Shown here: positions 3,503 through 20,480 of the stretch, one piece after another
Position numbering within the stretch: position 1 is the first letter of the stretch
Layout: every line of letters starts with the position of its first letter
Assembly: GCA_963825525.1 (NCBI GenBank)
Contig: CAWGTN010000002.1
Location: forward strand, 1,824,001 to 1,888,000
Direction of reading: 5' to 3'
From: an uncultured Chloroflexia bacterium
GTDB taxonomy: Bacteria; Chloroflexota; Limnocylindria; QHBO01
Length of the DNA: 64,000 nt
Notes under the pieces: generated by a model
Databases searched by the model: none
What the model was told of the DNA's origin: nothing
What the model saw: the letters and a program-made list of their open reading frames with translations, nothing else
Translations under genes and position numbers: made by a program

Positions 3503-3535
3503 TTGACCGATTCGCCGACGATCTTCGATAATCGA
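3503..3535 (+). promoter_or_regulatory. Promoter TTGACC-N18-GATAAT overlapped by palindrome TCGATAATCGA (putative GntR operator)
   Basis: Direct sequence; same palindrome class recurs at 12535-12545. Confidence 0.55.
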
Positions 3536-3602
3536 TCATCCCAGGCCGAGCGACCGGCCTCCGTCTCTGCGACGACGACTCCCGTACTCCGGAGGGTTCC
3601 CG

Positions 3603-4415: not shown

Positions 4416-4417
4416 CC

Positions 4418-5292
4418 ATGCAGCAGGTCACCCCGAACGTCCGCACGGCCACCGATATCCGCGGCTGCAACCCGAGCTACGTGACGACCGCCGACGGGGT
4501 GGTGGTGATCGACACGCCGCAGCTGCCGACGCGGGCCGTGGCCATGCGCGAGGAGGCGGAGGCGTTCGGGCCGATCCGATACGTGGTGAACACCGAGCAC
4601 CACGTCGACCACATCTTCGGCAACTACTACTTCAAGGGCGCCGGCCGGATCGTCCATCACCAGGGCGTGGCGGACAACTTCATGGTCGTCGGGCCGATCC
4701 TCGACCCATTCGCGTACGCCGCCGAGGCGATTCCCACCAACGACCCCGAGGGCGCCGGCATCTTCCCGGAGCGCGACGTCTACGAGGCCGATCCGAACCG
4801 AGGCCAGATCGTGTTCAGCGGGCGACCTTACGCTGGACGTCGGCGAGCACACGTTTCGAGCTCATCCACACGCCCGGGCACACGCCGGGCCAGGTGGCCG
4901 TCCACGTTCCCGCCGAGCGCGTGGTGTTCACCGGTGACACCGTGTTCAGCGAAGTCCAGACCTGGCTCATGGCCTCCGACATCGAGGAGTGGGTGATCGC
5001 CCTGGACCGCATCGCCGCCCTCGACGTGGACCACGTCGTGCCCGGCCACGGCCCGGTGACGACCACGGCCTACCTGGCGACCCAGAAGGCGGTCCTGCTC
5101 GAGTGGCGAGCTGCGGTGGCCGATGCGGTGGCCAGGGGCTGGTCACGCGAGGAGACGATCGCCCGGGTGAACTTTGCGGACCGCTTCCCGGTCGACATCG
5201 GGCAGGAGTACATGATGGAGTACATCCAGAAGCACAACGCCGGCGCGCTGTGGGACCGGCTCAGTGCCCCATTCCGTCGAGGCCCGAGCTGA
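4418..5292 (+). CDS. MBL-fold metallo-hydrolase (frameshifted near 4820-4860)
   Basis: NTEHHVDH motif, then PGHTPG, FTGD and VPGHG in another frame. Confidence 0.8.
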
Positions 5293-6179
5293 GCGACTAT
5301 CACCTCCACCTCCATCCACACACGCCGGTCCCCGGTGCCCCGCCGATGGGCGTCTATCCGCCGGGATACATCGACCGCTACGTCGAGGCGGCGCTGGCCC
5401 GCGGGGTGCGCGAAATCGGCTTCACCGAGCACCTGTACCGATGCGTGGAGTCGGAGCCGGCCCTCGGCCGGTGGTGGGAGCGCGACGCTGATCCGCGACT
5501 CGGAGCCGAGTTCGGTGAATGGATTGCCGGGCAGCGCACGCTCTCGCTCGAGCGTTACGTGGAGGTCGTCCTCGACGCCAAGGCGCGCGGCCTGCCCGTC
5601 AAGCTCGGACTCGAGGTGGACTTCGTCCCCGGAACCGAGCGGGCCGTGCTCGACCTGCTGTCCGGGATCCCGTTCGACTACCTGGTGGGGTCGATTCACT
5701 GGATCGGCGCCTGGAACTTCATGCGTGACTCGGCGGTGGCGGAGTTCGCTCAGCGCGGAGCCGACCGGGTATTCGCCGAGTACTTCGCCCTCGAGGCGAG
5801 CCTTGCTGCATCGGGAATGGTCGATGCGCTCGCCCACGTGGACGTCATCACCCGGCACCGCATCCGCCCGGATGGCAGCCTGGCCGATCTCTACCGGCCC
5901 GTTGTCGCGGCGGCGGTTGCCAGCGGCACGGCGGTGGAGGTGTCGAGCGCCGGGCTGCGTCACGAGGTCGGCGTGGTCTATCCCGCGCCCGAGTTCCTCT
6001 CGCTCTTCCATGAAGCGGGTGTCGGCATCACGCTCGCAAGTGACGCGCATCTCCCCGAAGACGCCGGATGGGGCCACGACGAGGTCCTTGTCGCCGCGCG
6101 CCGGGCGGGCTACCGCGAGTACCTCCGCTTCTCGGCGCGCCAGCGTCTGCCCACGCCGTTGGCGGGCGAGGACTCCTAG
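5289..6179 (+). CDS. PHP-domain phosphatase (HisJ histidinol-phosphatase family)
   Basis: DYHLH, FTEH, GLEVD, GSIH, SDAH motifs; start uncertain (CTG overlapping upstream stop). Confidence 0.8.
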   Translation: MSDYHLHLHPHTPVPGAPPMGVYPPGYIDRYVEAALARGVREIGFTEHLYRCVESEPALGRWWERDADPRLGAEFGEWIAGQRTLSLERYVEVVLDAKARGLPVKLGLEVDFVPGTERAVLDLLSGIPFDYLVGSIHWIGAWNFMRDSAVAEFAQRGADRVFAEYFALEASLAASGMVDALAHVDVITRHRIRPDGSLADLYRPVVAAAVASGTAVEVSSAGLRHEVGVVYPAPEFLSLFHEAGVGITLASDAHLPEDAGWGHDEVLVAARRAGYREYLRFSARQRLPTPLAGEDS

Positions 6180-8438
6180 CCCTCGGCGCTTCGGTCACGG
6201 ATGGCTCGCCAGATCCGTTCGGGCGTGATCGGCAGATCTCGGAGGACGACGCCGGTGGCATCGGTCACGGCCGACGCGATGGCCGGAGCGGTCGACAGCA
6301 GCCCACTCTCACCGGTGCCCTTCGACCCGTACGGGCCGGGTCCGTCCTCGTTCTCGATGAACAGCGAGGTCATCTCGAGGGGCACGTCCTTGGTGGTCGG
6401 GATGCGGTAGTCGAGCGCGCCGAGATTCGCGACCCGACCGACCTCGTCGAACACGAGGTGCTCCATGAGGGTCTGGCCGATGCCCATGATCGCGGCGCCC
6501 TCGTCCTGCATCGCCACGTGGCCCGGATTCAGTGCCTTGCCGACGTCCGACACGGTCACGTGACGCAGGAGCTCCACCTCGCCGGTCTCGGAGTCCACCG
6601 CCACCTCGGAGGCGGTGCAGCTGAACTCGTAGAAGGCCGCGTGCCCGCCGAGCGGATGCCCCGCAACGTGGGCGCCGCGTCGCTCGCCGGTGCCGATGAC
6701 CTCGCCAAGCATCGGCCCGAAAGCCCGCGTCATGATCTCGACGAAGCCGACCTCCCGGTCGCCGATGCGCAGAACGCCATTGCCGGGCTCAACCTCCTCC
6801 GGCGGCACCTGCTCCAGCTCGGCCGCCATCTCGCGCACCTTTGCCTTGACGTCCCGGCAGGCGTTCAACACGGCCGTGCCCATGAATACCGTCGAGCGGC
6901 TGGCCGAGGTCTGCATGTCGTACGGCGCGGCCGACGTGTCACCCATGACGATGTCAACCCGCTCGAGGCCGACGCCGAGCTCCTGCGCGGCGATCTGCGC
7001 CAGCACCGTCCGCGCGCCCTGGCCCATGTCGGAGGTCCCCGCCAGCACCGTGACGCTTCCGTCATGCAGCAACCGAACGATTGCATACGAGGCCCCGGTG
7101 GTCGCGGACGACTTGATTCCCAGCGCGATGCCCCGGCCCCGTCCCTTCGGGGTCGGCGTTCCCCAGCCGATGGCGTCGGCGGCGGCTCGCACGGCCTGCT
7201 CCCACTCGCCATCGGCCGGCGTGTCGCCCGCGCCGCGCACGATCGCCTCGCCACGTCGCGCCAGGTTGCGGAGCCGGATCTCCAATCGGTCCATGCCCAG
7301 CAGACGCGCACCCTCGTCCATCTGCGATTCGAAGGCCCACGCCATCTGCGGGCTTCCGAAGCCGCGCAGTGCGGTGGCCGGTGGCGTGTTCGAGAGGAGT
7401 GCGCGCACGTGGATCCGCGCGTGCGGGACGCGGTACGGCCCACAGGCCAGGTAGCTGCTCTTCGAGACCACGCGGTGGCCGATGTCCGCGTACGCCCCGA
7501 GCAGTCCGTCGCTGACGATGTCCTGGAAGGCGATGGTCCCGTCGCGCTCGAAGCCCGTGCGGATCGGCGATCTCGAAGGTGGGTGATCTGACCGCCTGGA
7601 ACGTCTCCTCCAGGGTGAGGATGAGGCGGACCGGGCGCCCGGTCCGCAGCGCCAGCAGCGCCAGCAACGGCTCGAACTTGGCGTGCTGCTTGCCGCCGAA
7701 TCCACCGCCCGGGTCGGGGGCGAAGACGCGGACGCGCGAGAGCGGCATGCCCAGCGTCTCCGCGACAAGGCGCTGGAGCACGTAGGGATGCTGGATGGAG
7801 CTCCAGATGGCCACGCCGTCGCCGTCGGGCGCGGCCATGAACCCATGGGGCTCGATCGCGAAGTGGGTGGTTGAGGCGGCGGTGTATCGGCGTTCGACCA
7901 CGTGCTCGGCGGTCGCGCCCTCCACGTCGCCCCAGCCGAATCGCCACTCGGTGAGGATGTTCGTGGCGCGGAACTCGTCGTCCGCTGCTCGCAGCTGCGG
8001 GTTTCGGACGAGCGGGGACGCGGGGTCGAGCGCCTGCGCGACGGTCAGCACCGCGGGGAGGGCCTGATGCTCGACGCGCACCAGGCGCGCCGCCTCGTCG
8101 GCGGCATCCCGCGTTTCGGCCACGACCGCCGCCACCGGCTCGCCGTGGTACGTCGTCTCGTCAACGGCAAGCAGCGGCCGGTCGGCGTAACCGGGTCCGA
8201 AGCGCGGAACAGGTTGCGGCAGCTGCTGTGCGGTGACCACGGCGATGACGCCCGGGACGCGTTCAGCGGCGGCCGTGTCGATCCGGTCAATCCTGGCTCG
8301 GGCGACGTCGAGATGCACCAGCCGCACGTGCTGGACTCCCTCGAGCGCGATATCGGCAACGTAGCGCTGCGCACCGTTGACGCGTTCGGTCCCGCCGATC
8401 CGTCGCTCCGACCTGCCGATCGGATCTGGACGCGTCAC
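6176..8438 (-). CDS. Xanthine dehydrogenase family molybdopterin-binding (large) subunit; frameshift near 7562
   Basis: GGGFGGK, ALRGFG, GQGART, SKGTGE motifs across two frames. Confidence 0.85.
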
Positions 8439-8921
8439 CGGTCGTCCTCCCGCCGACTCCGCCGCGACGCCCACGGCCTCGCAGATCTGGTTGTAGCCGC
8501 CACATCGGCACAGGTTGCCGGACAGTCCCTCGCGGATCTCCGCCGCGGTTGGACGCGGGATGCGCGCCAGCAGGTACTCGGCCGACATGACCATTCCCGG
8601 GATGCAGAACCCGCACTGGACGCCGCCGGTGGCGAGGAACGCGTCCTGGACCCGATCCAGGCGGTCGCCGTCTGCCAGTCCCTCGACAGTCGCCACGTCC
8701 CGGTCCGCGGCCTCGACCGCGAGCACGAGGCACGAGTTCACCGCGTGGCCGTCGAGCAGCACGGTGCACGCTCCACATTCACCCTCCGCACAGCATTCCT
8801 TGGTCCCCGTGAGGCCGATGTCGTCGCGCAGCATGTCGAGAAGGGTGTGGTGGACCGGGACGTCGACCTCGCGGCGCGTCCCGTTGACCCGCACGGACAT
8901 GCGCATGCGGTCGGTGGTCAC
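8435..8921 (-). CDS. Xanthine dehydrogenase family (2Fe-2S) small subunit; reads in frame into the large subunit as assembled
   Basis: CAEGECGAC...C and QCGFC...NLCRC motifs. Confidence 0.85.
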
Positions 8922-9772
8922 GCTGCGCCTCCGGCCAGGTTGGCCAGCGCGCGGTCGAGCGCGCGCCGGCTCAGCACCAGGAGCATCGCCTCGCGGTACT
9001 CGCGGCTGGCCCGCACGTTCGAGATGGGTGCCGCCTGCGACGTGAGGCGGGCGAGGATCTCCTCACGGTCGGCGGGTGCGGCGCTCAGATCCGCCAGGTC
9101 GCCGGTCTCGTCCGAGACCAGGAACGCGCGGGGGCCGACCGCGCCGTAGGCGAAGGTCGTGATGCCTGATGCGGAAACCGTGCACGCCAGGTTCACGGTT
9201 GCGAGGTCGACGCCGCGCCTCCGCGTCATGCGCCCGAACGATGATCCGCGGCGCTCGGTCGGCATCGGCAGCTCGATGGCGCTGACAATCTCGCCGGATC
9301 CGAGAACGGTCCGGCCCGGGCCGGTGAGGAACTCGTCGAGGGAGACGCGACGCGTGCCCGCAGAGCTGGTGAGCTCCACCACCGCTCCGTACACGAGCAA
9401 CGGAGGCACCGTGTCGGCAGCGGGGGAGGCGTTGCAGATGTTGCCGGCCAGCGTCGCGCGGTTCCGAATCTGGATCGAGCCCACCACGCTCGCCGCCTCG
9501 ACCAGCGCGGGAAAGTCGTGGCCGATCAGATCGTCCTCGATCAGCGAGGTGATGACCGCCGTGGCACCGATTCGCACCGATGACGCCCGCCGTTCGATGC
9601 CGGATTCCAGCTCAGCGACCCGCTTGATGTCGATGACGAGCGGTGCGTGGAACTTGCCCTTCCGCAGGCCGACGATGAGGTCAGTGCCACCGCACAGGAC
9701 GCGGGCCTGCGGCGCGTCGCGCAGCAGCTCGAACGTCTCGGCGAGCGACTCCGGTCGAGCGTAGGCGAACAT
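8918..9772 (-). CDS. Xanthine dehydrogenase family FAD-binding (medium) subunit
   Basis: GGTDL, QIRNRATLAGN, ASPAAD. Confidence 0.9.
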   Translation of the reverse strand: MFAYARPESLAETFELLRDAPQARVLCGGTDLIVGLRKGKFHAPLVIDIKRVAELESGIERRASSVRIGATAVITSLIEDDLIGHDFPALVEAASVVGSIQIRNRATLAGNICNASPAADTVPPLLVYGAVVELTSSAGTRRVSLDEFLTGPGRTVLGSGEIVSAIELPMPTERRGSSFGRMTRRRGVDLATVNLACTVSASGITTFAYGAVGPRAFLVSDETGDLADLSAAPADREEILARLTSQAAPISNVRASREYREAMLLVLSRRALDRALANLAGGAA

Positions 9773-9780
9773 CGGCGTCG

Positions 9781-10443
9781 TCAGCCCGTCTCGAGGACCT
9801 GGCTCTCGGCCTGGCGTGCATGCGTGCGCATGACGTCGGCCGCGGCATCGGGATCGCGCGCTTCCAGGGCATCGAGAATCGCGACGTGCCGCTCGGCGAG
9901 CCAGTGGAGGTCAGCGCCGGGGACCGACGCGGTGAGATAGGATCGCGCAAAGGGCTCGAGCATCGACCACATTCGCTGGAGCGTCCGGTTGCCCGATGCC
10001 GTGATGACGCAGGTGTGGAACTCGGAGTTCTGCTGTGCCTGGGCGTGCGCGTCGCCGGCATCGGCACTCGCGCGCATCGCGTCCAGCAGCTCGCGCATCC
10101 GGGTCAGTGTCTCGGGGCTGATGAGCCTGGCCGCGCTTCGGGCCGCGATCGCCTCGAGCTCGCCGCGCAGCTCCATCGCCTCGACCAGCTCCTGGGGGTC
10201 CGGTTGGCGGACCCGCGCGCCGCGGTACGGATGCATCTCCACCAGGCCCAGCGTGGCCAGATCCCGGAGTGCCTCGCGCACCGGTGCCTGGCTTGTCCCG
10301 AGCTGCCGCGCGATCCGGGTCTCGATGATCCGTGATCCCGGAGCGAGCTCTCCCTCGAGGATCCACTGCAGCATCCGGTCCTTGACCTGGGCGCTCAGGA
10401 CGCTGCGCGCGAGTGGGATCCCGGAGGAATCGAGGGCGGCCAT
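9781..10443 (-). CDS. GntR-family (FCD) transcriptional regulator
   Basis: wHTH (LGTSQAPVREAL) plus FCD domain (NSEFH...H). Confidence 0.9.
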   Translation of the reverse strand: MAALDSSGIPLARSVLSAQVKDRMLQWILEGELAPGSRIIETRIARQLGTSQAPVREALRDLATLGLVEMHPYRGARVRQPDPQELVEAMELRGELEAIAARSAARLISPETLTRMRELLDAMRASADAGDAHAQAQQNSEFHTCVITASGNRTLQRMWSMLEPFARSYLTASVPGADLHWLAERHVAILDALEARDPDAAADVMRTHARQAESQVLETG

Positions 10444-10444
10444 G

Positions 10445-10735
10445 TCAGTCCATGGTCACATACAGGGCGCGTTCACGGCGCTCCAGGCGCGGGACGGCCT
10501 CACCGCGCACGAGCCGCTCGAAGTGCTCGGTCGCGAGGTGTGCCTGGAAGCCGGCCTCGTCGTCGTACTGCTCGTACAGGAAGAAGTCGTGGGGATCCTC
10601 CGGCGATTGGTGAGTGATGAAGAGGCGACAGGCGGGCTCGGCGCGCACGAGCGGCGCAATCTCGCCGAGCAGCCGTCGGACCTCGTCCTCCTCGCCGTCC
10701 CTCGCTCGCCAGGTCGCGGCGACCACGTAGGTCAT
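10445..10735 (-). CDS. Antibiotic biosynthesis monooxygenase (ABM) family protein
   Basis: RAEPAC, FFLYEQY, HLATEHF; 96 aa. Confidence 0.85.
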   Translation of the reverse strand: MTYVVAATWRARDGEEDEVRRLLGEIAPLVRAEPACRLFITHQSPEDPHDFFLYEQYDDEAGFQAHLATEHFERLVRGEAVPRLERRERALYVTMD

Positions 10736-12498
10736 GCGCTGAACAGGTCGTTGCGAGGCTGAGCCGCAGCCTCGAGGATCTCGACCGTCCCGGTGCCACC
10801 GTCCACCCGGATCCGATCTCCGGTATTGACGCGCTCGGTTCCGTCCTGGGTGCCGACCACGGCGGGGATGCCGAACTCACGGGCCAGCACCGCCGGATGA
10901 GCGGTGAGGCCACCGGCGTTCGTCACGAGGCCGGCGATCTTCGTGAACAGCGCGACCCAGGCAGGGTTGGTCATGTGGCAGACGAGGATATCGCCGGCAC
11001 GGACCCCGTCGAACTGGTCCTCGCGCAGCACGACGCGAGCGGTGCCCTCGATGACGCCCGGTGAGCCGCCGATGCCGCTGAACTGACCGGCCACGTCGCC
11101 CTGCTTGCGATGGAACTTCTCGGGGAAGCCCCAGTTCGTCAGGTACGGGAATGCCAGCTGGCTCTCGGTGGCCGTGCCGATCCAGGCGGGTGGGCGGAAG
11201 CCGTAGGCCCTCTCGCGCTCTGCGCGCCGCTCGGCGACGATCGCGCGCGCGTCCATTCCCGCTGGATCACCCATGAATACTCGCAGCTCGTTGTAGCGCA
11301 GGAAGATCACGTCGTCGGGCTGGTCGAGGGCCCCGAGCTCGACCAGCTTGCGCCCGATGGCGATCAGCACCACCCGCAGGTGAGCATTCGCTCCCTGGTC
11401 GATGTAGAAGTGATGGTCGGGGGTCAGTGGCGCCATCCGCAGGTTGACCTCGTTGGCCGAGCGCATCTCCTCCAGCGCCTCACCCTCCAGAACCTCGAGG
11501 ATCTCGCGTGACGCCGCCTCGATGTCGTCCTTCAGGCTGCCCACCGTCGCCGGATAGTCGTAGTCGGTCTCGACGTATCCACGCACGAGCTCGATCACCG
11601 GCTCCATCTGCTCGTACACCGTCGGGAAGACGAACTCGTGGCTCCACACCGCGTGCCAGCCGAACTCCTTCTGGTACGGCTTCACGCGCTCGCCGATGAA
11701 GCTCCGACCGCGCTCTGAGCCCTCGAGTGCGGCAATGACTTCGCCGGCGCTCTCATGCTCGAATGACGATGTCAGGTCGGCGTCGGACATCACCTCCTGC
11801 TTCATCTCCCACAGGGCGCGGATCGAGTCCCAGTTGCGATCGCTCGCCGAGTTCTGGAGCCGCCCCAGGAGGGCCTCGTCGACCGTGCCGTGGGTCTTCT
11901 CCATCACGGCGCGCAGCTTGAGGGTGGCCGACAGCTGCGCGAAATTGAGCATCCAGTGGATCTTCCAGTGGCGATCGTGGATGTCGATGGCGTCCTCGAA
12001 CAGGACGGCCAGCTCCATGAGCGTCATCGAATCCTGGCGGTCGAGCACCTTCTCCAAGTAGGCGAAGTTGCCCTCCATCTCCGGGACGAGCCGATCACGC
12101 CACCAGTCCACGAAATTCTCGCCGTACACCGGCAGCACCGCGTCGAGATAGGTGCCGATCTTGTCGCTGTACTCCGGATCCAGCGGGACCCTGGCGCCGT
12201 AGCGTGCTCCGTACTCCATGGCGTCGACCCGCCAGGCGGGGTCAGCCGGCACGGCAGCCGTGAACAGGTAGCCGTTCACGTTCTTGGTGAGCCAGTCGCA
12301 GGCGAACGGAGTACCGAACCGCCGGAACATGTGATCGCAGGTCAGCCACCAGCCGCCGATCTCGTAGAACATCGGGCTCAGCGGATGCGGGCAATGGAGA
12401 TCGTCGAAGACCCAGAAGAGCGCCTGCTCCTGCTCCGACTCCCACGTGATCGGGAACTCGTCTGACCCGAGGAACTGGTCGAGGATCGGCTCGCTCAT
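10732..12498 (-). CDS. PEP-utilizing-enzyme protein: substrate-binding domain plus phospho-His swivel domain, no ATP-grasp
   Basis: C-terminal GGLTAHPAVLAREFGIPAVVG; N-terminal W..DDLHCPHP region resembling rifampicin-phosphotransferase/phenylphosphate-synthase central domains. Confidence 0.75.
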   Translation of the reverse strand: MSEPILDQFLGSDEFPITWESEQEQALFWVFDDLHCPHPLSPMFYEIGGWWLTCDHMFRRFGTPFACDWLTKNVNGYLFTAAVPADPAWRVDAMEYGARYGARVPLDPEYSDKIGTYLDAVLPVYGENFVDWWRDRLVPEMEGNFAYLEKVLDRQDSMTLMELAVLFEDAIDIHDRHWKIHWMLNFAQLSATLKLRAVMEKTHGTVDEALLGRLQNSASDRNWDSIRALWEMKQEVMSDADLTSSFEHESAGEVIAALEGSERGRSFIGERVKPYQKEFGWHAVWSHEFVFPTVYEQMEPVIELVRGYVETDYDYPATVGSLKDDIEAASREILEVLEGEALEEMRSANEVNLRMAPLTPDHHFYIDQGANAHLRVVLIAIGRKLVELGALDQPDDVIFLRYNELRVFMGDPAGMDARAIVAERRAERERAYGFRPPAWIGTATESQLAFPYLTNWGFPEKFHRKQGDVAGQFSGIGGSPGVIEGTARVVLREDQFDGVRAGDILVCHMTNPAWVALFTKIAGLVTNAGGLTAHPAVLAREFGIPAVVGTQDGTERVNTGDRIRVDGGTGTVEILEAAAQPRNDLFSA

Positions 12499-12533
12499 CG
12501 CGGCATGGCACCTCTCGTCGCTGTGCGTGAAGG

Positions 12534-12552
12534 ATCGATCATCGATGATAAT
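12534..12552. promoter_or_regulatory. Palindrome ATCGATCATCGAT next to -10 GATAAT in the divergent promoter region
   Basis: Direct sequence; matches the 3525-3535 palindrome. Confidence 0.55.
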
Positions 12553-12560
12553 GCAGCGCG

Positions 12561-14100
12561 ATGACCAGCCGCTACGTCCACGACTTCGATTCGACCCCCG
12601 ATATCGAGCCCGACGAGCTCGTTCGGCTTCTCGGCGGCAAGGGCGCCAACCTGGCGGTCATGGCCACCGAGCTTGGCCTGCCGGTGCCGCCGGGCTTCAC
12701 GATCTCGACCGAGGCGTGCGTCGCGTATCTGGGCGGCGCGTGGCCAGATGCACTTGACGATGAGCTGCGTGATCACGTCGCGCGGCTGGAGGAGCTGATC
12801 GGCCGCCGATTCGGGCACGCCGACGACCCGCTCCTGGTGAGCGTCCGCTCCGGTGCCCCGGTCTCGATGCCCGGGATGATGGACACCGTCCTGAACCTCG
12901 GGCTCAACGAGACGACCGTCCGCGGCCTTGCGGCAGCGACCGGCGATCCCGATTTCGCTGCCGACTGCCTCCGCCGATTTCACGACGGCTACCGTCAGGT
13001 GATCGGAGCTCTGGAGGCGCCGGAGGATCCGTGGCGGCAGCTCCGCGAGGCGATCGAGGCCGTGTTTCGCTCCTGGAACAGCGAGCGCGCCCAGGCGTAT
13101 CGGCGACGGGAGGGGATTCCGGACGACATCGGCACTGCGGTCACCGTGCAGGCCATGGTGTTCGGCAACCGTGGACCGGACTCGGGAACCGGCGTGCTGT
13201 TCACACGCAACCCGTCGACGGGGGAGCCGACCCTGTTCGGCGACATCATGTTCGACGCCCAGGGCGAGGACGTCGTGGCAGGCACGCATGAGCCGCAGCC
13301 GCTTGACGCGCTGGACGGTCGTCTGCCCGAGGTTGCGAAGCGAGCTTCGATCGCATGCCGATCGGCTGGAGCGGCATTACCGGGATCTGTGTGACATCGA
13401 ATTCACGATCGAGCAGGGCAGGCTGTGGCTGCTCCAGGTCCGCGCCGGCAAGCGGAGCCCGCAGGCCGCGCTGCGGATGGCGATCGACATGGCCGAGGAT
13501 GCGAGCTTCCCATTGTCACGGGAAGAGGCCGTGCGGCGGGTGGCGGCGCATCTCGCCGATCCGCCGCGGGTCTTCGTCAGCGCCGGGGATCGGCCGATCC
13601 CGATCGCGACCGGGCTGCCGGCCTCGCCGGGCGTCGGTTACGGAGCCATCGTCCTGACCTCGGACGACGCCGAGTCCGCCGCGGCCGATGGACGCACGGT
13701 GATCCTCGTCCGGAGCGAGACGTCGCCGGAGGATGTTCGCGGCATGGCCCGTTCGGAGGGGATTCTCACGGCGCGCGGGGGCCTCGCAAGCCACGCGGCG
13801 GTCGTGGCCCGCGGTTGGGGGATCCCGGCCGTGGTCGGCGCCCGTGACGTCGTGCCCGGCAATGATGGCGTCGAGATCGGCGGGCAACGGTTTGCGGCCG
13901 GAGCTGAGCTCACGATCGATGGGAGCAGCGGCGAGGTCTTCAGCGGCTCGCTGGAGGGGACGTGGGAGATGCCTCCCGAGGCGGCGACGCTGCTTGCCTG
14001 GGCCGACGAGCTTGGGGTTGAGCGTGACGCCATCCGATGCCGACGCGACTGCGGCGAAGGCCCCGACTCGCAGGCGATGCCCCAGCCGGCGAGGACGTGA
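12561..14100 (+). CDS. Truncated pyruvate,phosphate dikinase-like protein (ATP-grasp plus His swivel, no pyruvate-binding barrel); frameshift near 13340
   Basis: LLGGKGANL, VSVRSGA..SMPGMMDTVLNLG, VQAMVFGN, AQGEDVV, DIEFTIE, GGLASHAAVVAR. Confidence 0.85.
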
Positions 14101-14714
14101 CGGCCGACGACGTGCTGCGCGCACTTCTCATCAAGGGCGCAACCGAGCCCGAACAGCTCGCCGACGCTCTGCGGTCCACGGCCACGGACCTCGAGGCGGT
14201 CACGACCGAGCTCGGCGACGAGGGAGCGATCGAGCGGATCGATACGGCGCTTCGCCTGTCCACCGATGGGAAGCTTCGTGCCCGTGCGTTGATCGCCGAC
14301 GATCGGGCGGAGGTCGGCGAGGCCCGAGCCGGCGAGCTCCTGGAAGCGTTCCACGCCTTCGACGGGCGGATGAAGGAGATCGTGACCGCGTGGCAGGTGC
14401 GGGACGCGGATGGTCAGCAGACCCTCAATGATCACCAGGACGCGGAGTACGACGCACGAATCCTCGACGACCTGGCCGCGCTGCACGCCGATACCTCGTC
14501 ATGGATCGAGGCACTTGCCGTCCAGCTCGCTCGGTATGCCGGCTACCGGCAGCGGTTGACTGATGCGGTGTCACGTGCCCGGGACGGGGACCAGCGCTAC
14601 GTGGCCTCGCCGCGCGTGGACAGCTATCACGGCGTCTGGTTCGAGCTCCACGAGGACCTGATCCAGCTCGCCGGCCGGCGTCGGTCCGACGAGGCTGCCG
14701 CCGGCCGCGCCTGA
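14097..14714 (+). CDS. Winged-helix plus helical domain protein resembling the partner of mycobacterial truncated PpdK (Rv1126c-like); separate gene or fused tail
   Basis: WQ...NDHxD...SYHGVWFELHEDL motifs; GTGA overlap with upstream stop. Confidence 0.6.
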   Translation: MTADDVLRALLIKGATEPEQLADALRSTATDLEAVTTELGDEGAIERIDTALRLSTDGKLRARALIADDRAEVGEARAGELLEAFHAFDGRMKEIVTAWQVRDADGQQTLNDHQDAEYDARILDDLAALHADTSSWIEALAVQLARYAGYRQRLTDAVSRARDGDQRYVASPRVDSYHGVWFELHEDLIQLAGRRRSDEAAAGRA

Positions 14715-14715
14715 G

Positions 14716-15522
14716 TCAGCCCTCGCTGACGGACCACCCGCCGTCCACGTCGATCACCTGCCCGGTGATCATGCGCGCGCCCGGCCCCAGCAGATGGAGC
14801 GCGGTGGGCGTGACGTCCTCCACCTCGATCGGCCCGCGCGCCCGTGGCTGTTTGCGCTCGAGGAAGGCTCGTACCGCGGGGTCCTCCTGGGCTCGCCGGC
14901 TCATCGGCGTGGCGACCAGGGACGGGGCGATGGCGTTGACCCGGATGCCGTGGGTGGCGTAGGCCGAGGCCATCGAGCGGGTCAGGGCCTCGATCCCGCC
15001 CTTGCTGGCGGCGTAGGCGTGGGTGCCGAAATGCTCTGCCGATGGATGGCGGGACAGCACGCTCGACATGTTGAGGATGACGCCGCGCTCGCCGTGCGCG
15101 TCCGGCTCCTGGGTGAGCATCTGGCGCACGACGGCGCGGCAGACGAGGAAGAGGCTGGTCAGGTTGCCGCCGATGACCGCCTCCCAGCCGGCCAGCGACG
15201 CCTCGTGCACGGGACCGTCGCCGAAGCGGCGGCCGCTGATGCCCGCGACGTTGTAGGCGGCATCGATCCGGCCGAAGCGCTCGATCGCCGCCGAGACGGC
15301 CCGTTCGGCGTCATCTTCCCGGGCCAGGTCGGCGCTCTCGTACGCCACCGAACCGCCACCGGACTCGATCTCGGCCGCCAGCGAACGGACACGCTCTGGG
15401 TCCCGCGCGACGAGGAACACGCTGCCGCCCTCGTCGGCGATCGCGCGGGCGGCCGATGCGGCCATTCCCGTCGACCCGGTGACGAGGGCGACACGACCCT
15501 CGAAGCGGCCGGGATGGGTCAT
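14716..15522 (-). CDS. SDR family oxidoreductase
   Basis: TGSTGMA, YAASK, TGQVIDVDGG. Confidence 0.85.
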   Translation of the reverse strand: MTHPGRFEGRVALVTGSTGMAASAARAIADEGGSVFLVARDPERVRSLAAEIESGGGSVAYESADLAREDDAERAVSAAIERFGRIDAAYNVAGISGRRFGDGPVHEASLAGWEAVIGGNLTSLFLVCRAVVRQMLTQEPDAHGERGVILNMSSVLSRHPSAEHFGTHAYAASKGGIEALTRSMASAYATHGIRVNAIAPSLVATPMSRRAQEDPAVRAFLERKQPRARGPIEVEDVTPTALHLLGPGARMITGQVIDVDGGWSVSEG

Positions 15523-16159
15523 GACCCGGCGATCAGCCGCACGAGGTCGCGGCGTGCTGCGGCATCGGCCTTCGTGATGGCGCTCCCAACGCCCACGGCG
15601 ACGGCCCCGGCCTCGAGGTAGGCGATCGCGTTGCCGGCGTCCACGCCGCCGGTCGGGATGAGCTCCACTTCTGTCATCGGGCCTCGCACCTCACGGACCA
15701 TGGCCGGCCCCGACGGCCGAGGCGGGAAAGAGCTTGACCATGGTTGCACCTGCCGCCCACGCCGCGCCGATCTCGGTCGGGGTCATGGCGCCGGGAATGA
15801 AGGGGAGTCCCCGCCTCGGTGGATGAACGAAGCAGGTCGAGGTCGAGGAGCGGCGCCACCGCAAAGTCGGCGCCGGCCCCGCGGGCTGCGGTCAGCTGGT
15901 CGCCCGTTCGCACCGTTCCCGCGCCGACCAGGAACGGGCCGTCGTCACGTCGGCCGAGATCGGCCCGCAGCGCCGCGAGGTCCTCCGCGCCCGCCGCCGA
16001 GTCCAGGGTGACCTCGAAGATCCTGGCGCCCGCGTCGGCGAGCTCACGGGCCATGGTCAGCAGGTGCTCGCGGGGCTCGATCCGTCGAAGGACCACGACC
16101 AGCCGATGACGGCGGATGGCCTCGGCCACCGGGCTGCGCCGCAGCTCGAGGGCGGTCAT
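15519..16159 (-). CDS. eda: KDPG/KHG aldolase family protein (frameshifted)
   Basis: VVLR, FEVT, VGAGTV, then MTPTE, VKLFP and PTGGV in shifted frames. Confidence 0.75.
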
Positions 16160-17453
16160 CGGGCCAACGCCGCGGGAAGCGGATCCAGCAACGCTCCGTC
16201 GGCTTGAAGCCGGTCGCGCAGGGCGACTGGCATCCACGCTCCGTGGCGTCGTCCGCGACGCCACTGCCATGGCGGCGGCGGTCCCGGCGGCCTGCCCCAT
16301 GGCCATGCAGGTCGCCATCGAGCGGGCCGAGGCATGGGCGTCGTGCGTGGCCGAGAAGCATCTGCCCGCGACCAGCAGCCCCTCGACATCCTGCGGCAGG
16401 AGCGATCGGTACGGAATGCCATAGACGCCGGACTCGTCGACGTAGCGCCATTCGGTGTCGCCGCCGGCGTGGTGATCCTCGATCGGTGCGCCGCACAGGG
16501 CGATCTCATCGTCGAAGCGGCGCGCCTGGAGCACGTCCTCGCGGGTCAGCCGGTAGTCACCGTGCACGCGACGGCTCTCGCGGACGCCGATCGACGGGCT
16601 GGTGGCGACGACGACCGACGCCTCGAAGCCGGGGACCCGGTCGCGCAGGAAGCGGGCGTACTCGCGCACCTGGCGGCGGCCCTCGACCTCGGCGCGGGTG
16701 AGCTGCTCCGGGATCCGTGGCGTCGACGTTCGGGATGCGGGTCATGTGGATGAGCACGATCCCCTCGAAGGGAGTCCGATGCCACGACCCCTCGATGCGC
16801 GGCAGGCGGTAGTCGCCCGAATCGGCGGCCGCTCGCATGAGCTCCCAGAGCTCGGCCTTGGGGACGGCCGACGCACGCGCGACGTCCACGTTCGCGACCT
16901 TGAACAACGTCGAGAGCGACTGGACCTGCCCGGTGGCCTGCGCATTCTCGTACGGAACCCCGGCCAGGGCGCTGACATCGGCATCACCTGAGGCGTCAAC
17001 GATCGCATCGGCGCCGATGAACCGTTCGCCGCCCTTGTTCCAGATGCGGATGCCGGTGATGCGGTCACCATCCATGGTCACGCCGGTGACCCAGGTGTGG
17101 AGCAGCAGCTCAACGCCCGCATCCTCGGCCAGCTGCTCCCACAGCAGCTTGAGCGCCTCCTGGTCATACGTGACGCCCGTGCCCGCTCCGTAGGTGTTCG
17201 GCCGCTCGAAGGCCACGCCATCGCCCGTGAGGCGTTCGACCACCTCCCAGCCGATGCCGCCCACGACCCGTCGTGGATCCTCGCCGGGTGTGTAGAACGC
17301 GTAGAACGTGTCGAGCACGGCGGTCGAGGTGCCACCCATGAACCCGAGCCGGTCGACGAGCAGCGTCGAGGCGCCGGACCGAGCCGCCGCGATGGCGGCC
17401 GTCGACCCGGCCGATCCGGAGCCGACCACGGCAACGTCGTAGCGGTCCCTCAC
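16156..17453 (-). CDS. FAD-dependent oxidoreductase (FAD_oxidored family); frameshifts near 16715 and 16205
   Basis: GSGSAG, DASGDAD, GVRESRR, YGIPYRSL, AGRCFS, MAMGQAAG. Confidence 0.8.
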
Positions 17454-18406
17454 GATGCAGTCCCCGCGAGGGCGAAGGCACGGGCCGGGTTGTTGACCAG
17501 GATGCTGTCGACCGCGTCGCCGCCGATCCGACTGCGGAGGCGCGGGACGAACGTCTCCATGAGGTAGCGCAGGCCCGGGCCGCCTCCGTAGGCGCGAAGC
17601 ATCGATCGCCGGCCCATGTCGAGGCCGAGCATGATCCGATCGAGGTGACCGGCGCCGGCGACCGCCTCGATCAGGCCCAGGATCTCGCTGTCGGGCCGGT
17701 ACTTGGTGCGCCCGATGGTGTCGTACTCGAGAAACACGCCTCGTGCGGCGATCTCGGCGTGGAGCTCGGGATCGGGGTTGCGATCCATGTGGGCCAGGAT
17801 GATCCGGTCGTTCGCGAGCCCATGCCCGGTGAGGATGTCGACGATCTCGTGACCGAACGTCCCCACCTCGGCGTGGACGAGGACGGCGACTCCTGCCCGC
17901 AGCGCGCCGATCGCCGAGGCCTCGAGACGCCGACGCTCGGCATCGCTGGCGTGGTGGTACGACGCCCCGGCCTTGATGACGCCGGCCCGAGCTTCGTCCG
18001 GCATGGCATCCGGGTCGTCCCAATCGCCGGGGTGCATGCCGACTTCGAGGTCGCGCACGACCCTGTCGGCCAGCATCTCGACCGACGCCTCATGCACCCA
18101 GTGACCCGCCGGGTAGTGCGCGTCGCGGTGATAGCCGGTGGCGCCGATGATCGGCATGCCGCTGGCCGTCGAGACCGCGCGGAGGAGGTCCGGTCGTCGC
18201 CCCAGTCCGATCGGTGTGACGTCGACGATGGTCCCGATTCCACTCTCGCGGCCCTCGAGGGCCTCGGCGGTGGACAGCCCGAGATCCTCGAACTCGTCGC
18301 CGGGAAGGGCTGGAGTACGGAGAAAGAGGTGGTCGTGGGCATCCACCACGCCAAGACGGGAGACCGGCACGGCGCCGGTCACGGTCATCACCTCGGGCTC
18401 GGGCAC
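17450..18406 (-). CDS. Phosphotriesterase-family amidohydrolase (possible lactonase)
   Basis: HDHL, IVDVTPIGLGR, GVIK, VH, AHMD, GLD, NNP motifs. Confidence 0.85.
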   Translation of the reverse strand: MPEPEVMTVTGAVPVSRLGVVDAHDHLFLRTPALPGDEFEDLGLSTAEALEGRESGIGTIVDVTPIGLGRRPDLLRAVSTASGMPIIGATGYHRDAHYPAGHWVHEASVEMLADRVVRDLEVGMHPGDWDDPDAMPDEARAGVIKAGASYHHASDAERRRLEASAIGALRAGVAVLVHAEVGTFGHEIVDILTGHGLANDRIILAHMDRNPDPELHAEIAARGVFLEYDTIGRTKYRPDSEILGLIEAVAGAGHLDRIMLGLDMGRRSMLRAYGGGPGLRYLMETFVPRLRSRIGGDAVDSILVNNPARAFALAGTAS

Positions 18407-18476: not shown

Positions 18477-18671
18477 TCAGCCCCGGTGCGTCTCGTCCTC
18501 GCTGTCGGGGTCGGCGTCGGATTCCGGGGGAATGTTCGCTTCGTCGGCGTCGGTCATCTCCGGGTCATACGCCTTCCCCTCGTCCGGCGGTGGGCTCTTG
18601 GGCTGCTCGATGCTCCGGGCATCGGTGTCGTGGTCGCTCATGCCGTTCGCCTCCCCGTGGTCGGTCATCAA
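18477..18671 (-). CDS. Small acidic hydrophilic protein
   Basis: 64 aa, D/E/P-rich; SD CAGGAGA; overlaps upstream stop. Confidence 0.55.
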   Translation of the reverse strand: MMTDHGEANGMSDHDTDARSIEQPKSPPPDEGKAYDPEMTDADEANIPPESDADPDSEDETHRG

Positions 18672-18889
18672 GAGTCTCCTGCCCGTCGCACGTCATCATC
18701 CCCTGCCTGGTCGCCCTCGCGGTGACCCTCGGGCCAGGCTCCCTCGCGCGGGGCTGGTCCCGATTCGTTGTTGGTGACCGCCACGCGCTCGGCTCCATCG
18801 TCCAGCCCTTCACGCACCTGCTCGGTGTTCTCGTCGGGGTGCTGTCCGATCCAGGCGCCGCCCTCGCGCCGCTTCGTGTCGTCCTGCAT
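18668..18889 (-). CDS. Small acidic hydrophilic protein (MQDDTKRREGGAWIG...)
   Basis: SD CAGGAGG before ATG at 18889; 73 aa. Confidence 0.6.
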   Translation of the reverse strand: MQDDTKRREGGAWIGQHPDENTEQVREGLDDGAERVAVTNNESGPAPREGAWPEGHREGDQAGDDDVRRAGDS

Positions 18890-18920
18890 CCGTTCGCCTC
18901 CTGTGTGATGGCGATCCTGT

Positions 18921-18936
18921 TGCAAGGCGCACGCCG
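18921..18936 (-). promoter_or_regulatory. Possible sigma54-type -24/-12 promoter CGGCGTGCGCCTTGCA
   Basis: GG-N10-GC spacing with TTGCA, about 30 nt upstream of the start. Confidence 0.35.
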
Positions 18937-18984
18937 AAACTGGCCACGGTCTTCCTGGGCCGAGCGCCTCGGCCCTGCGTGCGG

Positions 18985-19507
18985 CTAGGTGTTGTACGCG
19001 GACATGATCCGATCCTTGGCGCCGGTCTTGTGATCCGGGATCGGTGTCATGCGTGTCGGTGCTGCCCGGGGCGGGAACGGCGGCCGCGATGTCGACGCCG
19101 GTGTCGACCAGCAGCGCATTGACCGCGTCCACGTAGGCCCCCACCGAGGCCTCGAGGATGTTCTCGCTCACGAACGTGCCCGGATACACGGGGCCGCTCT
19201 CGTCGGCCCGGCTGCGCACGGCAACGGAGACGGAACCCTTCGTCTCGTGGCCCGGACCCTGGGCATGGACGTCGTAGGAGACCAGCGAGATGCCGTCGCC
19301 GAGGACCGGCGCGAGAGCGTCATCGACCGCTCGCATGAGCGCATCCACCGCGCCGTTGCCGTCGGCGTGCGCTCGCCAGCGATGCCCGCCACCGTGGAGC
19401 ACGAGCGAGGCACGGCTGCCGCGGTCGCTGCCGCTGGTTGCCGACCAGCGCTCGATGCTCAGGCCGGCCGCGGTGCCGGCCGTCTCGTCGGGCTGGGAAG
19501 TGGTCAT
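18985..19507 (-). CDS. Stand-alone LeuA/CimA-type allosteric (regulatory) domain protein; frameshift near 19038
   Basis: GNGAVDAL...LVSYDV...ENILEASVGAYVDAVN; SD AAGGAG; corrected C-terminus ...DRIMSAYNT*. Confidence 0.75.
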
Positions 19508-19538
19508 CGGGTTCGGTCTCCTTGCGGTCGGGCGGCGC

Positions 19539-20480
19539 TCAGATCGAGGTGAGCCAGGATGCGTAGCGCTCGTCCGTGCCACGGACCGCGGCGAAGTAGC
19601 GTTGCTGGATGTCGAGCGATGTCGGGAACTCGCCCGTGCCCACCGGACGATCGTCGACCGAGGAGATCGGCGCAACCTGCACGCCGGTCCCGGTGAGGAA
19701 GATCTCGTCCGCCAGGTACAGCTCCGAGCGGTCGATTCGCCGCTCGGCGACGTCGTGGCCCGCATCGGCCGCGATGCGCAGGATCGCTGCACGCGTGATG
19801 CCGGCCAGGACGTCATCGGTCAATGGCGGCGTGGCGATCTCGTTGCCGCGCACCACGAACAGGTTGGCGGCCGACGCCTCGGCCACGTGCCCGTCACCGG
19901 TCAGCAGGATCGCGTCGTCATAGCCGCCGGCGTGCGCGTCCTCGGCGGCGAACGCGGCGTTCACGTACGAGCCGCTGATCTTGCCGCGAGCCGGGATGGC
20001 GTTGTCACTGACGCGCTGCCAGCCCGAGACCGTGACCCGGATCCCGCCGGTCGGCAGGTAGTCGCCGAGCGGGATGGTGAAGATGCCGATCCGATCCTCC
20101 AGGCCGCTGAGCTGGACGCGGATCGACGGCGCCGACTTGTAGACCAGCGGCCGGATGTAGGCGTCGCCCTCGTGCGCATTGCGTCGCAGGAGGTCGAGCG
20201 TGATCTCGACCAGGTCGTCCGCCGACTCCGGCACGGTCGCCCGCAGCAGGCGCGCGTTGCGCAGGAGTCGCTCGTAGTGCTCGCGAGCGAAGAGGATCGC
20301 GCTGCTGCCATCGGCCTGGCGATAGGCGCGAATGCCCTCGAACACGGCCGTGCCGTAGTTGAAGGTGTGCGTCGCGATGCTGACATTCGCCTCGCCGATG
20401 GGCACCACGGCGCCCTCGAAGTACGCCCAGGCGCCCAGGCCGGCGGCCGATGCCGCGGGGCGCGGTTCGGTCGCCGTCAC
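19539..20480 (-). CDS. ilvE: Branched-chain amino acid aminotransferase
   Basis: YGTAVFEGIR, KISGSY, EASAANLF, LAGITR. Confidence 0.9.
   Translation of the reverse strand: MTATEPRPAASAAGLGAWAYFEGAVVPIGEANVSIATHTFNYGTAVFEGIRAYRQADGSSAILFAREHYERLLRNARLLRATVPESADDLVEITLDLLRRNAHEGDAYIRPLVYKSAPSIRVQLSGLEDRIGIFTIPLGDYLPTGGIRVTVSGWQRVSDNAIPARGKISGSYVNAAFAAEDAHAGGYDDAILLTGDGHVAEASAANLFVVRGNEIATPPLTDDVLAGITRAAILRIAADAGHDVAERRIDRSELYLADEIFLTGTGVQVAPISSVDDRPVGTGEFPTSLDIQQRYFAAVRGTDERYASWLTSI

Follow-up and report, generated by a model that had tools for sequence, protein, structure and literature searches.

We analysed a stretch of 64,000 nucleotides (hereafter, the window) from a 2.58-Mb genome (G000) that is assembled in four contigs and is 91.8% complete. 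The window covers positions 1824001-1888000 of contig C2 and has a G+C content of 70%; the closest public relatives of its genes are found in metagenome-assembled genomes (MAGs) labelled Candidatus Limnocylindria or Limnocylindrales, Chloroflexota. Our subject is a pair of divergent genes that may encode the two halves of a split small-molecule dikinase, one of them heading the operon of a molybdenum (Mo) hydroxylase. The following features were assigned (positions in the window; aa, amino acids; ORF, open reading frame).

10732 to 12498, minus strand: putative acceptor subunit of a split small-molecule dikinase, 588 aa, with a substrate-binding domain of the rifampicin phosphotransferase (RPH)/HpeH type and a C-terminal swivel domain.
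10445 to 10735, minus strand: ABM-family protein of 96 aa, second gene of the operon (Pfam ABM, E 1.5e-17).
9781 to 10443, minus strand: GntR/FCD transcription regulator (Pfam GntR and FCD).
8918 to 9772, minus strand: FAD-binding subunit of an XDH-family Mo hydroxylase, 284 aa (Pfam FAD_binding_5 and CO_deh_flav_C).
6176 to 8921, minus strand: [2Fe-2S] subunit (about 8450-8921) and molybdopterin subunit (about 6176-8440) of the same enzyme (Fer2, Fer2_2, Ald_Xan_dh_C, MoCoBD_1/2).
12534 to 12552, no strand assigned: palindromic operator-like motif with an ATCGAT-N-ATCGAT core, in the 62-nt divergent intergenic region.
12561 to 14714, plus strand: one gene for a predicted VadK-type pyruvate phosphate dikinase (PPDK) lacking the barrel, together with an Rv1126c-like module, about 718 aa (from the frames of orthologs and a full-length model).
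12561 to 13600, plus strand: PPDK-type ATP-grasp (nucleotide-binding) domain of this gene (Pfam PPDK_N; TIGR01828, 310 bits, and NF004531, 322 bits, for the first ORF).
13699 to 13932, plus strand: its swivel (PEP-utilizers) domain with the motif 'GGLASH', whose His codon is at 13792-13794 (PF00391, E 3.2e-22).
14106 to 14711, plus strand: its Rv1126c-like module, 202 aa, made of a MarR-type winged helix (residues about 1-70) and a four-helix bundle (AlphaFold2, homology).

Relatives were sought in a set containing one genome per species, in which 595 related stretches were confirmed; the best 80 of them (L020-L099, 67-83% identity) are the 80 loci referred to below. Near-full-length orthologs of the 588-aa protein are distributed patchily, being found in four of 36 other genomes of the genus, in five of 11 from one sister family and in none of 11 from another. 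Accessory catabolic traits show such a pattern.

The sole Pfam match of the 588-aa protein is the swivel domain PF00391 (residues 500-570, E 9e-25). Pfam gave no PPDK_N match, so the protein is without an ATP-grasp in the same polypeptide, and a phosphoenolpyruvate (PEP)-binding domain is also absent among its Pfam matches. The catalytic motif [TS]xxGGxxxH reads TNAGGLTAH, with His534 encoded at 10897-10899; it is present in 79 of 79 orthologs, among which the RPH-type substrate domain is strongly conserved. The NCBIfam model NF006153 ('PRK08296' proteins) covers residues 21-576, and the RedH, PigC, RPH and PEP-synthase-like models cover the protein from about residue 155-375 to the C-terminus, those of RedH and PigC starting at about 195; all are below their cut-offs. 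The best sequence matches in PDB are the RPH chains 5FBS and 5HV1, which align with residues 375-576 in the single-sequence search and with residues 375-579 (E 8e-33) in the profile search. By BLASTP, residues 28-575 are 26% identical (E 8e-40) to an HpeH-like protein encoded in an hpe-type cluster with biotin carboxylase genes on a Rhizobium plasmid. An earlier note on this DNA, made from the sequence alone, had likened the protein to phenylphosphate synthase, RPH and PigC/RedH, and at the sequence level this likeness holds (NCBIfam, PDB, BLASTP). Judging from these matches, the 588-aa protein is the acceptor half of an RPH/HpeH-type dikinase, combining a substrate-binding domain with the swivel His534.

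The acceptor gene overlaps the ABM gene by 4 nt, and the genes of the GntR/FCD regulator and of the FAD, iron-sulfur and Mo subunits follow on the same strand. The Pfam matches, this overlap and the common strand bear out the proposal of the earlier note that a swivel protein without an ATP-grasp heads the operon. The iron-sulfur and Mo subunits are read in the window as one fused, frameshifted pair of ORFs, with a frame change near 7565. The best NCBIfam models for the Mo subunit are XdhA (272 bits) and the alpha subunit of 4-hydroxybenzoyl-CoA reductase (266 bits), both far below the cut-off. Since no NCBIfam equivalog above its cut-off names the Mo enzyme, its substrate is not readable; the earlier note, too, held that the substrate could not be read from the sequence, and the variable accessory genes (see below) agree with this.

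On the plus strand, three ORFs in two frames jointly hold the ATP-grasp, the swivel domain and a 225-aa tail. An intact ortholog aligned with the window in three parts, at 12561-13337 in frame 3, at 13324-14022 in frame 1 and at 14106-14711 in frame 3, and in 47 of 54 loci of relatives the three parts share one frame and encode proteins of 700-765 aa. The swivel His motif is present in 46 of 50 orthologs of the fused protein, the remaining four being fragments, and the corresponding histidine (H415) is invariant in an alignment of 23 sequences. NF004531 (PRK05878, short PPDK) matched two pieces of the fused protein with 322 and 179 bits. Neither Pfam nor NCBIfam revealed a PEP/pyruvate TIM barrel, and the TIGR01828 match ends at position 526 of 865. 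The model of a full-length ortholog (predicted local distance difference test, pLDDT, 87.8; predicted template modelling score, pTM, 0.65) contains a disordered linker at residues 494-511, before the tail. Its first ~490 residues match the PPDK structure 1KBL, the best hit of the model in PDB (E 1.5e-41, 42% identity, 540 columns, root-mean-square deviation (rmsd) 3.0 Å); the match of the model to HpeI (9GOJ, E 2.7e-6) is far weaker. The genome G000 has only two PPDK_N genes, the fused gene and a gene in a 1015-aa open frame elsewhere, which is taken to be the housekeeping (true) PPDK.

The AlphaFold2 model of the tail, built with 24 sequences, has a pLDDT of 94.5. Residues 1-70 superimpose on MarR chains with Z 10-12 and an rmsd of about 1 Å over 66-70 residues (VIA-align). 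The helical bundle resembles generic four-helix bundles only (p130Cas, GIT1 FAT and vinculin tail; Z 10-11.7), below the relevance level for helical bundles. Foldseek found no match for the whole module, its best hit (E 0.039) covering the winged helix only, and no Pfam or NCBIfam family scored above the cut-off. The features named in the earlier note, a PPDK-like ATP-grasp and a His domain without the barrel, followed by a winged-helix domain, were recovered; its separate ORFs, by contrast, form one gene in relatives, and its description of the tail as His-rich overstates what are three invariant histidines.

The identity of the tail is indicated by its homologs. It is 36% identical (E 2e-31) to a 201-aa Mycobacterium protein, the close relatives of which sit in named Mycobacterium records; in two actinobacterial loci the gene of this protein overlaps by 4 nt the end of a gene for a truncated PPDK of 491 or 480 aa. 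VadK (Rv1127c) of M. tuberculosis, described in 2026, is reported to be a truncated PPDK that autophosphorylates on a histidine, and Rv1126c is called its 'operonic partner'; according to the same paper, co-expression raised solubility, and 2 M NaCl separated the two proteins (PMC13400623). By synteny and the wording of that paper, the 201-aa protein would be the Rv1126c ortholog. Because the tail is homologous to a protein coupled to a truncated PPDK, the window gene appears to join a VadK-type kinase and its partner module in one protein. The earlier note had compared the gene with the truncated PpdK of mycobacteria, now named VadK; this comparison holds and reaches further, since the tail corresponds to the partner module of VadK. 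A literature search returned no paper on the function of Rv1126c.

The module also occurs outside the window. A profile search with the tail yielded 1832 representative proteins with E <= 0.001, of which 408 reached E <= 1e-30, both stand-alone (about 200 aa) and C-terminally fused (about 700-800 aa); a search for homologous proteins returned mostly fragments of the fused protein. Stand-alone homologs of about 204 aa exist in Actinomycetota (Atlas), and 32 of 301 sampled genomes of this phylum had a match. Twenty three actinobacterial loci were compared (L184-L206; 22 non-fused and one, L196, fused): a truncated PPDK is directly adjacent in ten of them, including L196, in either order or divergently; a swivel protein is adjacent in two; and neither lies within 1.5 kb in eleven. 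Two loci with the module have no truncated PPDK within 10 kb. Three unpublished genomes (G006, G034 and G131) enter only into a synteny comparison and into one row of the comparison of the 23 loci, and none of the conclusions depends on them.

In a tree of 20 rows, the fused proteins (support 97/94), the split actinobacterial proteins (100/99) and the full PPDKs (95/95) form three groups; the tree is unrooted, and which two are sisters is undecidable from it. Two further observations concern the module. The fused gene of a Streptosporangiaceae MAG (L183/L298, G063), which also has a true PPDK of 895 aa, nests within the Chloroflexota fused clade, suggesting cross-phylum transfer of the whole cluster. 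On plasmid pROB02 of Rhodococcus opacus B4 (L301, NC_012521.1 126128-142406), the C-terminal end of a 793-aa 'PEP-utilizing enzyme' resembles the second half of the Rv1126c-like module, and a tyrosine-phosphatase-like gene and two kinase-like genes come after it; this represents a further architecture of the module.

The linkage of the two divergent genes was examined in the 80 loci. In the 41 of them that have at least 9.9 kb on both flanks, the Mo hydroxylase is always present and all three parts of the fused gene are present in 40; the exception, L075, has the tail only. Relative to the acceptor gene, the fused gene is divergent and adjacent in 16 of the 80 loci, downstream on the same strand in 31 and upstream on the opposite strand in 13, and it was not seen in 20, of which 19 are on cut contigs. 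Gene-neighbourhood co-occurrence, which the earlier note had proposed as a check, thus holds across three gene orders, and the persistence of linkage despite rearrangement is a good indication that the genes function together. The other members of the operon are found less regularly: the FAD subunit in 67, GntR/FCD in 61 and ABM in 17 of the 80 loci.

A related cluster lies on the megaplasmid of Thermomicrobium roseum DSM 5159 (L100, NC_011961.1 45300-74952; TRD_RS09580-09660). It shares with the window the acceptor (49% identity), GntR (44%), ABM (39%) and the Mo (37%), iron-sulfur (46%) and FAD (28%) subunits; however, its ATP-grasp partner is a plain 323-aa PPDK_N protein of the classical HpeI/PpsB type, and the Rv1126c-like module is absent from the cluster. 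A 205-aa neighbour was considered as an Rv1126c-like protein and rejected (BLASTP E 6.3, hhalign probability 0.2%, weak DUF4202 match). The cluster additionally contains genes for an ABC transporter, a Tm-1-like/MarK-family protein, a PEP-hydrolase-like protein, a cyclase and an FAA hydrolase. A homolog (50% identity) of the T. roseum ATP-grasp adjoins an acceptor gene, 67% identical, in the locus L096 of an Acidimicrobiia MAG. A trio without a Mo enzyme nearby is found on plasmid pJCM12687 of Mycobacterium branderi (L300, NZ_AP022607.1 728553-747137), where genes for a 522-aa truncated PPDK, a 200-aa Rv1126c-like protein ('MarR family') and a 543-aa PEP-utilizing enzyme lacking an ATP-grasp adjoin one another amid SDR (short-chain dehydrogenase/reductase), VOC and zinc-dependent alcohol dehydrogenase genes. 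Since the acceptors of T. roseum and L096 pair with a subunit consisting of the ATP-grasp only, it appears that the ATP-grasp partner has been exchanged while the acceptor was retained; the predicted VadK-type trio also stands alone.

The region between the divergent genes contains a candidate regulatory site. The 16-nt form ATCGATCATCGATGAT at 12534-12549 occurs once in the 2.58-Mb genome. The ATCGAT-N-ATCGAT core is present in the shared intergenic region of 13 of 16 loci of the divergent type and within 500 nt upstream of the acceptor gene in 32 of the 80 loci; in total, it occurs 72 times in the 1.33 Mb of these loci and not once in 20 shuffles. We observed that the motif sits in AT-rich islands upstream of operons of the cluster. 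In T. roseum, near-matches, for which no statistics were calculated, are found upstream of the ABC-transporter operon and of the GntR gene. A scan of 12380-12700 for sigma-70 promoters and terminators found none. The motif is a candidate operator, to which the GntR/FCD regulator may bind.

Both the fused gene and the Mo subunit gene change frame in the window. The region 6100-14800 was compared with contigs from four public runs (four studies), which are 90-99% alike and mostly represent other strains. At 13340/13341 there is one base fewer than in the window in all three runs covering the site; at 14022/14024 and at 14065/14066 two runs have one base fewer each, and the third has 74 letters for 76. 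The three extra bases in the fused gene sum to a whole codon, so that the tail returns to the first frame. At 7565, in the Mo subunit, two of four runs have one base fewer and the other two cover the site without that difference. Further one-base differences from related contigs are at 8449 and 8926, and single-base differences occur at seven places in 8.7 kb altogether. All seven loci in which the parts of the fused gene are out of frame bear an isolate label 'MFD', as do most Mb-scale contigs in the list; these contigs are presumably long-read assemblies. Other genes of the window are broken as well: FAD_oxidored is split between 15674-16669 and 16557-18023, which also carries a fused KDPG-aldolase fragment, and pieces of LeuA-like genes are found at 18668-19816 and 20477-22129. 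The window assembly probably carries many indel errors, and the frameshifts of the fused gene and of the Mo subunit are most likely assembly errors.

Several characterized systems resemble the locus in part. The two-component dikinases HpeHI of Rhodococcus rhodochrous GD02, CreHI of Corynebacterium glutamicum and PpsAB of Thauera aromatica have been described; HpeH has the catalytic motif T/SxxGGxxxH and, according to the same source, shares about 45% identity with CreH and PpsA, and the ATP-binding subunits of known phenolic dikinases resemble PEP synthase (PMC12167813). Common to these systems and the window are an RPH-type substrate domain, a swivel histidine in the motif T/SxxGGxxxH, ATP binding on a separate protein and the location in a catabolic cluster. 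They differ in the partner, which is a PEP-synthase-like protein of ~340 aa in the known systems and a ~720-aa protein here, with a PPDK-type grasp, a swivel His and an Rv1126c-like module, and in the associated enzyme, which is a carboxylase encoded downstream there and a Mo hydroxylase here.

The second precedent is the 3hpd cluster of Ensifer adhaerens HP1, which comprises HpdA1-A4, orf9 ('pyruvate-phosphate dikinase') and orf10 ('PEP-utilizing protein mobile subunit'). Both kinase genes are reported to be required for the conversion of 3-hydroxypyridine to 2,5-dihydroxypyridine by the Mo hydroxylase; the preprint leaves the mechanism open, reports no detected intermediate and does not settle the order of steps (bioRxiv 10.1101/2020.01.08.898148). 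In our literature search, nothing newer than this 2020 preprint was found on the mechanism of the 3-hydroxypyridine dikinase. By the descriptions of its genes, the 3hpd cluster resembles the window in that an XDH-family Mo hydroxylase adjoins a PPDK-like protein, a PEP-utilizing protein and a GntR regulator. In contrast, the separate SRPBCC subunit (HpdA3) and the maleamate-pathway genes of the 3hpd cluster are not seen here among the Pfam matches, for which the commonest families were scanned. The Rhizobium plasmid cluster with the HpeH-like protein was considered as a 3hpd-type cluster, which was ruled out since it is of the hpe type with biotin carboxylase.

Among characterized proteins, VadK is the closest relative of the fused protein itself, which shares with it a PPDK-derived ATP-grasp and a catalytic His without the PEP/pyruvate barrel, the match to NF004531 and an Rv1126c-like partner module; the differences are that kinase and partner are fused here and stand in the context of a Mo hydroxylase and a dikinase. 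Also unlike the situation with VadK, the annotated families of the window and of related loci included no methylcitrate-cycle genes. Compared with canonical PPDK (1KBL), the first ~490 residues are alike, and the TIM barrel is replaced by the Rv1126c-like module. RPH (5FBS, 5HV1) likewise works with three stations, an ATP-grasp, a swivel His and a substrate domain. It is, however, a single polypeptide acting on an antibiotic, whereas the ATP-grasp is separate and of the PPDK type here.

The term 'new pathway', proposed as a candidate in the earlier note, is too strong, as two-component dikinases (PMC12167813) and, for 3-hydroxypyridine, a Mo hydroxylase that depends on a pair of dikinase genes (bioRxiv 10.1101/2020.01.08.898148) are already known. 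The replacement of the ATP-grasp subunit of a dikinase by a fusion of the VadK/Rv1126c type is not described in the literature that we searched, and a search for a Mo hydroxylase together with a PEP-utilizing enzyme and a PPDK found no paper.

Taken together, we favour, with a probability of roughly 55%, the interpretation that the two divergent genes encode a split small-molecule dikinase of the RPH/phenylphosphate-synthase type working with the Mo hydroxylase of the operon. The ATP-grasp of the fused protein would charge a swivel His with the beta-phosphate of ATP, either directly on His534 or first on the His of the fused protein and then on His534. The second route corresponds to the His-to-His relay suggested in the earlier note; the His of the fused protein may also have a different purpose. 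The acceptor would then phosphorylate a hydroxyl or oxo group on an aromatic or N-heteroaromatic compound serving the Mo hydroxylase as substrate or arising as its product. The phosphate ester could turn an electron-donating hydroxyl into a withdrawing group, favouring nucleophilic attack by Mo-OH, or could trap the compound in the cell. The Rv1126c-like tail would be an integral module of the VadK-type kinase, and the GntR/FCD repressor may control both transcription units via ATCGAT-N-ATCGAT in the shared promoter region. A more specific version can be put forward only tentatively and is rather doubtful at present: a phosphorelay from ATP to the His of the fusion, to His534 and to a small molecule, which as the ester would be the true substrate of the Mo hydroxylase, VadK/Rv1126c modules generally being donors to acceptors that lack an ATP-grasp.

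A number of points weigh against the split-dikinase interpretation. The acceptor has 26% identity to the one HpeH-like protein compared, which is uncharacterized, against about 45% among HpeH, CreH and PpsA. Known phenolic dikinases have PEP-synthase-like ATP-binding subunits, unlike the partner here with its PPDK-type ATP-grasp; the partner has a swivel His of its own and an extra module, neither of which a plain HpeI-type subunit needs; and VadK, its closest characterized relative, is described as regulatory and not as a catalytic subunit. In this genome the reading frames of the fused gene and of the Mo subunit gene are interrupted, with the corrected form at 7565 in only two of four runs; in L096, on a contig of low coverage, the acceptor gene contains an in-frame stop. 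The cluster has no conserved phosphatase (PHP in 9 and metallo-beta-lactamase in 21 of the 80 loci), and its accessory genes vary, so that they do not point to one substrate. Finally, the 80 loci are relatives at 67-83% identity, and counts made in them are not counts of independent samples. A complex prediction with the acceptor ortholog of L028, ATP and residues 1-345 of the partner, using alignments, gave ipSAE scores of 0.00/0.00 against a mark of 0.32; it was run without controls and is evidence neither way.

The strongest competitor of the split dikinase, although we consider it unlikely, is a regulatory role of the fused protein: as a histidine kinase like VadK, it would phosphorylate itself and then act on the acceptor, the Mo enzyme or the regulator through phosphotransfer or binding. 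The tail would sense a ligand or bind DNA, and the acceptor would be a relay or a target and not a small-molecule kinase supplied by this ATP-grasp. The architecture and partner module of the fused protein match VadK plus Rv1126c, and the tail holds a MarR-type winged helix; the separation of the module from a truncated PPDK in the actinobacterial loci (eleven of 23 with none within 1.5 kb, two with none within 10 kb) also counts in its favour. VadK autophosphorylates and is described as a regulatory histidine kinase, with regulation of methylcitrate-cycle enzymes via interaction as the proposed function (PMC13400623). On the other hand, the acceptor keeps its conserved RPH-type substrate domain and needs an ATP-grasp, of which G000 has none other besides the housekeeping PPDK; a plain ATP-grasp subunit takes the place of the fused protein in T. 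roseum and L096, a point in favour of catalysis; and the cluster already has a dedicated GntR regulator.

It is improbable that the chemistry is reductive or otherwise non-hydroxylating, the phosphate ester allowing the Mo enzyme to take away or exchange the oxygen function in the manner of 4-hydroxybenzoyl-CoA reductase, or that the dikinase acts on the product of the Mo enzyme. The near-equal scores of the Mo subunit with XdhA and with the alpha subunit of that reductase, both far below the cut-off, are consistent with such chemistry, and the order of steps is unsettled even in the 3hpd system, where no intermediate is reported as detected. Against it, the 284-aa FAD subunit shows only two Pfam domains, both of the CoxM/XdhB type; 4-hydroxybenzoyl-CoA reductase has an extra iron-sulfur insertion. 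Moreover, the sole genetic precedent, the 3hpd system, is a hydroxylation, of 3-hydroxypyridine to 2,5-dihydroxypyridine (bioRxiv 10.1101/2020.01.08.898148).

We give similarly little credit to decay, that is, to the fused gene and the Mo subunit gene being true pseudogenes and the cluster being idle in this genome. The partner gene changes frame three times and the Mo subunit gene once, and two of four runs agree with the window at 7565, all of which could be read in this way; yet all differences are single extra bases of the window relative to independent contigs, the three in the partner make up a whole codon and bring the tail back into frame, all seven out-of-frame loci are 'MFD'-labelled, and other genes of the window (FAD_oxidored at 15674-18023, LeuA-like at 18668-22129) are similarly broken. 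That the neighbours are unrelated, the acceptor obtaining its phosphate from the housekeeping PPDK or from PEP via a route resembling the phosphotransferase system and the fused gene being adjacent by chance, is scarcely credible, as nothing speaks for it beyond the lack of biochemical data, while linkage holds in 40 of 41 loci across three gene orders, the same trio is found on a Mycobacterium plasmid, a candidate operator is shared between the genes and Pfam shows no PEP-binding domain in the acceptor.

The genes around the cluster were also surveyed. The survey of accessory families in the 80 loci took in the commonest families. Convergent with the operon lies the following unit.

3507 to 6179, plus strand: genes for an SDR (3507-4415), a metallo-beta-lactamase-fold protein (about 4418-5289) and a PHP protein (about 5290-6179) (Pfam; the metallo-beta-lactamase by tblastn).

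The earlier note had assigned to the PHP phosphatase the removal of the phosphate. It occurs in only nine of 80 loci and belongs, on the opposite strand, to the SDR-metallo-beta-lactamase-PHP unit, which recurs in L021; this unit is peripheral and outside the conserved core, and the assignment is not supported. The most frequent accessory families are a protein of ~305 aa (52 loci), transaldolase-family proteins (44), SDR (30), metallo-beta-lactamase (21), zinc-dependent alcohol dehydrogenase (18), cyclase (16), the two transketolase halves (15 and 13) and aldehyde dehydrogenase (13). The transaldolase-family gene of G000 lies 155 kb away. The first of these families comprises proteins of 305-338 aa without a Pfam match; in 52 of the 80 loci its gene is flanked by the acceptor or GntR gene on one side and the FAD subunit gene on the other (for example, L050:11803-12720 and L042:12421-13437); tblastn (E <= 1e-5) found no homolog in G000, and a 338-aa hypothetical protein of M. 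branderi, considered as a member, was rejected (E 0.18). A protein of UPF0261, reported as the family of the aromatic kinase MarK (PMC12624787), is encoded in some relatives and in T. roseum, and no UPF0261/MarK-like kinase was found in G000. Near the cluster, a phosphotriesterase-family (PTE) gene lies at 17450-18406 on the minus strand; seven of the 80 loci contain it, placed upstream of the fused gene in the same arrangement at genus level.

The cluster of the acceptor and the Mo hydroxylase is widespread in soil Chloroflexota, as the 595 related stretches in the species-representative genome set show, and T. roseum, a cultured thermophile, offers a tractable model for the system. Using non-pathogenic material, it makes testable why a Mo hydroxylase needs an ATP-dependent dikinase, a requirement for which 3-hydroxypyridine is the genetic case, and which role barrel-less PPDKs of the VadK type play together with their partner. 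The fusion, together with the recurrent neighbour lacking an ATP-grasp, suggests that VadK-type PPDKs and their partner may feed phosphate to a second phosphohistidine protein. If the phosphorelay is true, the cluster would carry out a phosphorylation-gated hydroxylation of otherwise unreactive hydroxylated aromatics or heteroaromatics, and the Rv1126c-like module would be a functional component of the donor. Should the phosphate ester be what the hydroxylase really acts on, the aerobic degradation of hydroxylated aromatics and N-heterocycles would gain a new principle of activation.

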